Below, one piece after another: positions 44,559 to 55,706 of a stretch of DNA of 64,000 nucleotides; positions within the stretch are counted from its first letter, which is position 1, and each line of letters begins with the position of its first letter. The translations under genes were made by a program, and so were the position numbers. The DNA is taken from positions 32,001 to 96,000 of the forward strand of contig JBHLOY010000001.1 in the NCBI GenBank assembly GCA_048939995.1, read 5' to 3'. This stretch comes from Promethearchaeota archaeon. Its GTDB lineage: Archaea > Asgardarchaeota > Lokiarchaeia > Sigyniarchaeales > SOKP01. The notes under the pieces are model-generated. The model searched no databases. It was not told the DNA's origin and worked only from the letters and a program-made list of their open reading frames with translations.

Positions 44559-44873
44559 ATTAGTAAAGTAACACTAAAAAGATATTCAATATCTCAAGGA
44601 AAAGATCCAAAAGATCCAAGAGAAGGCAATTTTTTAGAGATTTGCAATAAAGATTTTAGGAATTTTAAAGAGAAAGACGGAGATCAGATTATAAAACTGT
44701 TAGATAAGTTGATCAAAGCCCGCGAGATTAGAGGCAATAAATTAGAACCATTCAAGCAACAGAAGATCAATTTAATGAATGTAAAACATTTGATTCATGA
44801 GGGCAAAGAAAGAGAGGCTTTTACAAGTTTCTATAGGGCATTTCCATATTGTATGCCATATAGATCTCTCTGA
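44559..44873 (+). CDS. Hypothetical 104-aa protein with apparent ATT start (not in ORF track)
   Basis: Open frame SKVTLKRYSISQGKDPKDPREGNF...PYRSL fills the gap. GGTGA (44548-52) lies 6 nt before ATT, with an in-frame TGA just upstream. Confidence 0.55.
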   Translation: MSKVTLKRYSISQGKDPKDPREGNFLEICNKDFRNFKEKDGDQIIKLLDKLIKAREIRGNKLEPFKQQKINLMNVKHLIHEGKEREAFTSFYRAFPYCMPYRSL

Positions 44874-49917: not shown

Positions 49918-50118
49918 TTACTGGAGCCGAGAAAACTTTAATAAATCATCCATTAGATCTACATGGCTAACAATCATTCTGCGACAACAAAACCTCTTAA
50001 TTCCAAGTTGATTAAAAGCATCGTCTGAATTTTCTCCCTTCTCAATAAGTTCAAGATAGGGTTTATATACATGAGCAATAAGTTTCCCGCAAGAAAAACA
50101 TCGAATTGGTATTATTAT
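49918..50118 (-). CDS. rpoN: RNA polymerase subunit N (Rpo10); probable ATA start at 50118
   Basis: IIPIRCFSCGK...RFCCRRM..HVD; GGTGA 7 nt upstream of ATA. Confidence 0.93.
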   Translation of the reverse strand: MIIPIRCFSCGKLIAHVYKPYLELIEKGENSDDAFNQLGIKRFCCRRMIVSHVDLMDDLLKFSRLQ

Positions 50119-54512: not shown

Positions 54513-54704
54513 TTAGCGTACTCTTAATGCATATTTACCAGGAAAATGAATTTTCAAATATTCTGCAAATTTTGACTCTTGAGGTTGTATAATTATAACT
54601 TCTCCGGTAAAATCATCACTTAAACTGTGTGTTTTACATTTAGGGCAAATTTGTTCATTTTTTGTTATTAAGTGACAATTCTTACATGCTCGTTCTTTTG
54701 AAAT
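54513..54704 (-). CDS. spt4: Transcription elongation factor Spt4 (RpoE''); ATT/ATC start, not in ORF track
   Basis: SKERACKNCHLI..QICPKC..LSDDFTGEVIII.P..S..A...PGKYALRVR. Confidence 0.93.
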   Translation of the reverse strand: MSKERACKNCHLITKNEQICPKCKTHSLSDDFTGEVIIIQPQESKFAEYLKIHFPGKYALRVR

Positions 54705-54718
54705 GATGATACACTTCC

Positions 54719-55306
54719 TTATTTTTCATTATCATCTACCTTCTTTTCCTCTTTTTTCATAAACTCATCATCAATATCTTGTTCTATCCATTCTTCCTTC
54801 CCTAAGAATTTTTGCCTCATAGTCAATCCTAATTTACCACTTCTACCTGTGCCAAGTGAGACAGCAATAATTTTAGACCTTACTACATCATTAACTTCAA
54901 GAATTTTTCCCGTTTCCTTACCTATAAATCGATTTCCCACTTGTTCATATGAAATATAATCATCACAGATTTGAGACACATGTACTAATCCATCTAATGG
55001 GCCTAATCTTATGAAGGCTCCGAAATCAACAACTTCTACAACCTCTCCTTCTACAACTTCAGAGATAACAGGTTTAAAAGCGAGAATTGTAAACTCTACC
55101 TCATGAAATGTGTTAGCGTTTCCAGGGATTATTATTCCAGGCCCAACATCAACAACATCAACAATTGCGATTATGAATCCATAATCTTTGGTGATTATTC
55201 CTTCATAATCCTCAGATAGAATTATACGAGCCGATACTTCCTTAGGTTGGTCAAATAAAAATGGAGGAATCTCAATTTTACCTTGAATTTGAAAGAGTTT
55301 AAAAAT
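54719..55306 (-). CDS. rpoE1: RNA polymerase subunit E' (Rpo7); full gene starts at ATT 55306
   Basis: FKLFQIQGKIEIPP...EVVEGEVVEVVDFGAFIRLGPLDGLVHVSQI...LTMRQKFLGK; the ORF track caught only the last 86 aa. Confidence 0.95.
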   Translation of the reverse strand: MFKLFQIQGKIEIPPFLFDQPKEVSARIILSEDYEGIITKDYGFIIAIVDVVDVGPGIIIPGNANTFHEVEFTILAFKPVISEVVEGEVVEVVDFGAFIRLGPLDGLVHVSQICDDYISYEQVGNRFIGKETGKILEVNDVVRSKIIAVSLGTGRSGKLGLTMRQKFLGKEEWIEQDIDDEFMKKEEKKVDDNEK

Positions 55307-55706
55307 TGTGGGACACCAGATAAAAAGATTAAATATAATTATCCTATAAAATATACCATAAAATTAATAATTTTTGGTTTTCCTCCAAAAAGAGAGAAAT
55401 AAATGCGAATATTTAAACATCACCAAAATACGGGTATAAAATTATTATTTTAAGAAATTATGAGTATTTTAAGAAATGAGCGCAATTGGATTGGCAAAAA
55501 GCAAAATCCAAATTTCATATGTTTTAAAAGAAAACAAACTAATAATTAAGCTTAGAATTCCGTATGAAATAATCAATATCCATAAAGCTAGGAATGATGT
55601 AGCTACTAAAGTTACTTTCATAAAAATTTCCTTTATAGCAATAAAAAATTGAGTGTTTTTGGTAATTAAATTTTGATGATTAATAAATTAGAAAAAAAAA
55701 GTATTA

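Follow-up and report, generated by a model that had tools for sequence, protein, structure and literature searches.

Probable ATT start codons behind Shine-Dalgarno elements in rpoE' and spt4 of a Lokiarchaeal genome, and the probable use of ATT, ATA and ATC starts across its genus

We analyzed a 64-kb stretch of DNA (64,000 nucleotides, referred to here as the window) from a metagenome-assembled Loki-type Asgard genome (G000; 3.75 Mb, 30.5% GC, 98% complete, 5% estimated contamination). In this window, the adjacent genes rpoE' (rpo7) and spt4 (rpoE'') very probably start at ATT. They share this trait with many other genes of the lineage, in which ATT, ATA, and ATC (together, ATH) serve as starts behind strong Shine-Dalgarno (SD) elements. 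The positions of these codons, their conservation, their covariation with the SD, their genome-wide excess, and their lineage specificity are established by sequence. The features of the two genes are as follows.

54719..55306, minus strand: rpoE'/rpo7 coding sequence, ATT 55306-55304 to TAA 54721-54719, 195 aa; orthologues align from codon 1
55304..55306, minus strand: putative rpo7 start codon ATT, position-homologous to Met1 of the orthologues
55314..55317, minus strand: GGTG Shine-Dalgarno core of rpo7, with the 7-nt spacer TCCCACA to ATT
54513..54704, minus strand: spt4 (rpoE'') coding sequence, ATT 54704-54702 to TAA 54515-54513, 63 aa
54702..54704, minus strand: putative spt4 start codon ATT; close relatives have ATG or ATT at the same codon
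54712..54718, minus strand: SD-like GGAAGTG of spt4, 7 nt before ATT, abutting the rpo7 stop TAA 54721-54719

Reading frames and identity of rpoE' and spt4

The open frame of rpo7 runs from 55363 to 54719 on the minus strand, is closed upstream by TAA 55366-55364, and reaches its first ATG, GTG, or TTG only with a GTG 109 codons past the ATT (codon 110). Read from ATT, after which the residues are FKLFQIQGKIEIPP, the protein matches the Pfam models SHS2_Rpb7-N (PF03876, residues 10-62, 41.3 bits) and S1 (PF00575, residues 82-153, 44.3 bits). It thus has the N-terminal SHS2 domain followed by S1, in about 190 aa, that characterizes the Rpo7/RpoE' family, and the nearest public proteins carry the name DNA-directed RNA polymerase subunit E'. 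Frame reading and Pfam confirm the original prediction, according to which rpo7 has no canonical start and its conserved N terminus begins at ATT 55306, past a GGTG. A product begun at the first GTG would be 86 aa long, with no SHS2 domain and an incomplete S1 domain, and this fragment is all that an ORF caller restricted to ATG, GTG, and TTG returns. The genome holds one copy of rpo7. Its initiation region has no match among Rfam families and no stable fold (unstructured, z = +1.3).

The systematic misannotation that was expected to follow from such starts is found in part. Odd public N termini (MFNI-, VFNI-, and MFYLFIWCRAI-) and the 86-aa stump speak for it; against it, NCBI reads ATT as Met in the closest relative, protein P0003 matching exactly the G010 orthologue (locus L002) when the ATT of the latter is translated as Met1.

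The spt4 frame is closed upstream by TGA 54728-54726 and then reads AAA ATA AGG AAG TGT ATC ATC ATT TCA, the protein reading across the start region being ..SKERACKNC. Its first canonical codon is a TTG at codon 57 of the open frame, which confirms the earlier reading of a TGA-bounded frame offering only ATA, ATC, ATC, and ATT before SKERACKNC. With the frame opened for the Pfam scan at ATC 54710, two codons ahead of the ATT, Spt4/RpoE2 (PF06093) matches residues 6-65 over profile positions 1-77 of 77 (53.7 bits). The zinc-ribbon CxxC...CxxC is present, and the gene starts 14 nt past the rpo7 stop, so that it has the traits by which Spt4/RpoE'' is recognized, namely, a small zinc ribbon, an end-to-end profile match, and a place next to rpoE'.

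Probable ATT, ATA, and ATC starts across relatives and across the genome

The rpo7 locus was gathered from 40 relatives, and the codon aligned to residue 1 was read in 27 orthologues, G000 included. This codon is ATT, ATC, or ATA in 19 of the 27 and ATG or TTG in 8, showing that relatives do not uniformly use ATG, GTG, or TTG at this position, the tabulation that the original prediction had named as a check. Within the genus, 18 species (again counting G000) have ATT or ATC and 4 have ATG; beyond it, the codon is ATG, TTG, and, once, ATA. Of the ATH-type orthologues, all 17 whose upstream DNA can be read have GGTG 7-8 nt before the start; of the 8 of ATG/TTG type, none has it at 6-8 nt (one has GGTG at 10 nt). 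The significance of this table is overstated, since the relatives share ancestry. On a maximum-likelihood tree the start label changes at least six times. Each of the four ATG forms inside the genus branches separately, surrounded by ATH forms, and has a decayed or displaced SD. This suggests at least four reversions to ATG inside the genus, that is, several independent switches in the same direction.

In-frame stops upstream of the Rpo7 start lie 0-39 codons off, at unconserved positions. In G015, a TGA stands two codons ahead of the ATC, so that a longer conserved N terminus is impossible. In G022, whose orthologue is of ATT type, a GTG of the same frame lies three codons upstream and is a possible alternative start. 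The rpo7 start region of G002 (locus L016) is tandemly duplicated (ATG TTT AAG GTG ... ATAA ATG TTT AAA), which produces a small ORF upstream, overlapping with the true ATG start.

In front of spt4, the SD-like elements of relatives are GAAGGTG or GAGGTGA, with a spacing of 7-8 nt. The six closest species vary at the start codon, which is ATT also in G010, G021, and G018 and ATG in G019 and G013; ATT is the only choice in G021, where a TAA stands two codons upstream. Species farther away have ATG or TTG, shifted by one or two codons. The absence of a canonical codon, the homology to Met1, and the conserved SD spacing together fit SD-led AUH initiation. Such initiation at ATT had been proposed for both genes, and the Met1-aligned codons, the upstream stops, and the GGTG 7-8 nt before ATH starts argue strongly for it.

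Two further features of the window are likely or candidate members of the same class.

49918..50118, minus strand: rpoN (Rpo10), most likely starting at ATA 50118-50116; GGTGA at 50130-50126, the ATA lying 8 nt past GGTG
44559..44873, plus strand: unnamed 104-codon candidate ORF, ATT 7 nt past GGGTGA; first canonical codon is codon 53

The rpoN start is ATA behind GGTGA in G000, G010, and G019, and ATG at the same codon, with GGTG absent, in G021, G007, and G016; in G019, a TAG eight codons upstream leaves no canonical start. A start at TTG 50145 would place the SD within the coding region. The unnamed ORF, which has an in-frame TGA inside its SD, is the fourth ATH candidate of the window.

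Genome-wide, we counted the codons that follow GGTG after a spacer of 6-8 nt, at most six codons from an upstream stop; the ORFs counted had 150 codons or more. The results were as follows.

ATG: 37 at 6-8 nt; at control spacers, 6-7
ATT: 32 at 6-8 nt; at control spacers, 9-15
TTG: 23 at 6-8 nt; 6 at 1-3 nt, and outside the listed codons at 12-14 nt
ATA: 21 at 6-8 nt; at control spacers, 5-7
ATC: 7 at 6-8 nt; at control spacers, outside the listed codons
GTG: 5 at 6-8 nt; at control spacers, outside the listed codons

The ATH excess is confined to the 6-8 nt spacing, and the census found no ATH excess behind weak SD words. A stricter screen was limited to ORFs of 100 codons or more that had no canonical codon either upstream or in the next 20 codons; it gave 21 ATT, 9 ATA, and 6 ATC at 7-8 nt versus 0-2 for control codons. 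Among 2,823 non-overlapping long ORFs, 58 reach a canonical codon only after 40 codons or more, and 22 of these 58 have GGTG followed by ATH. From these counts we estimate at least 40-60 ATH-initiated genes, which would be about 40% of starts preceded by a perfect GGTG and ∼2% of all genes, the latter share being small because only ∼5% of clear ATG genes carry GGTG.

Some long ORFs of G000 without an early canonical start have CTG, ACG, or GTA 7-8 nt past GGTG, and other near-cognate codons, too, may act as initiators. These ORFs are C7, plus strand, 85993 (HdrA-like); C16, plus strand, 15499 (flavodoxin-like); C6, plus strand, 40025; C11, minus strand, 291269 (GcvT-like); and C13, plus strand, 243012 and 48029.

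Twenty ATH candidates were scanned against Pfam. In about 12 of the 20, the family profile begins (position 1-4) at residues 2-22, whereas canonical codons do not appear until 22-130 codons in, as in the following families.

APS kinase: residue 4 at profile position 1; first canonical codon 34
ABCE1 Fer4_RLI: residue 2 at profile position 2; first canonical codon 96
SDR: residue 9 at profile position 1; first canonical codon 25
RagA-like: residue 4 at profile position 2; first canonical codon 35
AOR: residue 6 at profile position 2; first canonical codon 38
Ras: residue 9 at profile position 1; first canonical codon 38
DsrE: residue 6 at profile position 1; first canonical codon 33
Alpha/beta hydrolase: residue 22 at profile position 1; first canonical codon 122
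CbiA: residue 12 at profile position 4; first canonical codon 54
GCHY-1: residue 6 at profile position 2; first canonical codon 61

The XPD and Fer4_8 candidates follow the same pattern as these families. The other candidates of the 20 have either no Pfam match or a match past the first canonical codon and are neutral. The candidates with early profile matches span mutually unrelated functions.

Lineage specificity, initiation machinery, and other explanations

For comparison we used a 1.2-Mb sample of G032, a closed genome (31.2% GC) from a different Lokiarchaeal family, where the codons behind GGTG are ATG (24), TTG (4), GTG (3), ATT (3), and ATA (1), with ATH at background; the difference from G000 is significant by Fisher's test (p = 7e-5). 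AT-richness alone was rejected as the cause, given that G032 has no ATH excess at 31.2% GC. The ATH habit is thus lineage-specific, and its absence from an equally AT-rich Lokiarchaeon points to altered initiation machinery (aIF1, aIF2, initiator tRNA, or rRNA).

Neither a SUI1 search nor tblastn with genus-mate aIF1 found aIF1 in G000. It was likewise not found in 6 of 24 genus mates, and the 3-20 kb surrounding aIF1 in G019 and G021 have no counterpart in G000, the missing stretch amounting to at least 20 kb by comparison with G019. The absence is probably an assembly gap rather than a clean deletion, and we do not claim a loss. In six genus mates (among loci L035-L041), the aIF1 frame has no canonical start ahead of the zinc knuckle, making ATT its likely start in genus mates; the neighboring GTG belongs to a different frame, which ends at a TAA. 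In genus g2 (L032/L033), a conserved TTG occupies the start position. Some genus mates have two aIF1 paralogues. The original prediction had also suggested looking for altered fidelity residues in aIF1, and none were seen: the core motifs (loop 1, KRKWG; CASGGT; LQGDH) do not differ between the ATH-rich genus and other genera.

ARAGORN, run on G000 with and without introns, returned 9-20 tRNAs and no tRNA-Met at default thresholds, relaxed thresholds giving noise, and a pattern search of the same genome (GGG-CUCAUAA-CCC arm; A1:U72 acceptors) found no initiator tRNA either. An Rfam tRNA search of G000 gave only 21 matches above its threshold, many with long introns. A CAU tRNA at C28:237433-237538 (minus strand) has G1:C72 and is of elongator type, with an intron and an unusual T-loop (CTCATAT). 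The 3' end of the 16S rRNA was not found in the G000 assembly.

Lowered start stringency might itself be a regulated state of the genus, in which an ATT-started aIF1 would set the translation of the AUH-gene class, Rpo7, Spt4, and Rpo10 included. We regard this as conceivable though unlikely; if true, archaea closely related to eukaryotes would have their own version of the autoregulation known from IF3/infC and eIF1. More specific is a dedicated control that ties the supply of RNA polymerase subunits to start stringency, as suggested in the original prediction. In the version considered here, weak starts on RNA polymerase-associated genes (Rpo7, Spt4, and Rpo10) would make their synthesis depend on the stringency set by aIF1, in the manner of infC. 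That three transcription genes with ATH starts lie inside one 64-kb window, that ATH at Rpo7 is retained through the whole genus, and that genus-mate aIF1 most likely begins at ATT where genus g2 has a conserved TTG would all suit such a control. However, dozens of genes with other functions, among them transporters, kinases, GTPases, and redox enzymes, have ATH starts as well. Rpo6 and Rpo11 start at ATG, and the partners of Spt4 and Rpo7 do not share the feature, Spt5 starting at GTG or TTG and Rpo4 having an in-frame GTG that is probably its start. Moreover, Rpo7 has gone back to ATG in four lineages, the ATT of spt4 is recent and found in few species, and choosing three genes for their oddness introduces a selection bias. 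The dedicated control is not supported and is decidedly unlikely; the idea is viable only in a general form, in which all ATH genes alike might respond to the stringency of initiation.

To examine the leader of rpo7, we aligned the 110 nt upstream of the gene in 20 genus members.

55356..55378, minus strand: conserved promoter-like (BRE/TATA-like) block upstream of rpo7, ACCAAAAATTATTAATTTTATGG, with TTATTAAT at -64 to -57

The best-conserved noncoding stretch, AT-rich ACAAATTATTAATTTTATG, lies 55-75 nt before the start in 20 of 20 genus members, and the block is probably the BRE/TATA promoter of an rpoE'-spt4 operon. Between it and the SD there are indels of 8-20 nt, while the GGTG-to-start spacing is constant. 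The variable distance on one side and the fixed spacing on the other suggest a leader of ∼30 nt that carries the SD. A start elsewhere could mean a leaderless mRNA beginning near the ATT, with GGTG as promoter DNA, an internal canonical start, or another noncanonical codon upstream. An AT-rich, TATA-like word (ATATTTAA) at -30 to -23 of the ATT in G000 would favor the leaderless version, but it is not conserved and is displaced by the indels in relatives, in contrast to the distant promoter-like block and the invariant GGTG. Furthermore, the SD of spt4 sits within the operon, directly past the rpo7 stop. An internal start would remove the SHS2 domain of Rpo7, and the sequence upstream in its frame is unconserved, with stops 0-2 codons off in some relatives. 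A start elsewhere is thus very unlikely in any of its versions. The GTG within GGTG was also considered as the true start and rejected, being out of frame at both 7- and 8-nt spacers.

That the odd codon reflects a one-base assembly or consensus error, or decay into pseudogenes, has a negligible probability even for a metagenome-assembled genome with 5% estimated contamination, as ATT or ATC recurs in at least 17 independently assembled genomes and both core genes are intact, single-copy frames with 77-96% identity to their orthologues along the full length.

Proposed mechanism and relation to known systems

GGTG is presumed to be complementary to the general archaeal anti-SD. Under SD-led initiation at ATH, a GGUG-type SD in the mRNA would pair with the 3' end of the 16S rRNA, and this pairing would set the codon 7-8 nt downstream into the P site. 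There, AUU, AUC, or AUA presumably pairs, with a mismatch at the third base, with the CAU anticodon of the ordinary initiator Met-tRNA, so that the protein would begin with Met. ATT, ATA, and ATC would then be regular but probably weaker start codons in the genus, on genes of all kinds, the strong SD offsetting the weak codon and decaying once a lineage regains ATG. The tight covariation of codon and SD strength is a clean natural case of compensatory evolution in initiation signals. In practical terms, gene finders limited to ATG, GTG, and TTG will shorten, extend, or miss genes, as with the stump of Rpo7 here, and such miscalled starts skew Asgard marker-gene sets, protein families, and structural predictions.

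SD-led AUU starts are known from infC (IF3) and pcnB of Escherichia coli, and NCBI table 11 lists ATT, ATC, and ATA among possible initiators. AUU initiation is known from a few bacterial genes and is not known as a routine archaeal start; our search of the literature, with subscription journals outside its coverage, turned up no paper reporting ATH starts for Asgard archaea. The genes studied here resemble infC and pcnB: all are otherwise ordinary genes with an AUH codon, near-cognate to AUG, at the usual distance from the SD, and this codon is presumably decoded by the initiator tRNA and weaker than AUG. They differ in that infC and pcnB are isolated bacterial genes, whereas ATH starts here would concern ∼2% to a few percent of genes and ∼40% of strong-SD genes. 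The AUU of infC couples IF3 synthesis to IF3 activity; the fidelity factor is IF3 in bacteria and aIF1, the homologue of eIF1, in the archaeon. A possible likeness to the autoregulation of infC and eIF1 is that aIF1 of genus mates itself appears to be ATT-started.

In textbooks and reviews, archaea are described as using three start codons, AUG, GUG, and UUG (Schmitt et al. 2020, PMC7531240), a statement that counts against the present reading, and noncanonical codons are disfavored by aIF1 (Schmitt et al. 2020, PMC7531240; Monestier et al. 2018, PMC6237735). SD-assisted positioning is documented for Pyrococcus abyssi aEF1A mRNA, with GGAGGUGA-type elements 6-8 nt upstream, and SD sequences are not prevalent in the available Lokiarchaeon (PMC7531240; PMC6237735). 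The starts described here share with the reviewed archaeal initiation the assistance of the SD and the spacing of 6-8 nt, but differ in that the AUH starts of this genus are concentrated exactly in the strong-SD minority of genes. Ribosome profiling in Haloferax volcanii placed ∼30% of putative alternative initiation sites at codons near-cognate to AUG (Gelsinger et al. 2020, PMC7261190). Those sites are unvalidated minor or alternative ones, set aside by the authors (PMC7261190), whereas the near-cognate codon here is the sole possible start of essential, conserved genes.
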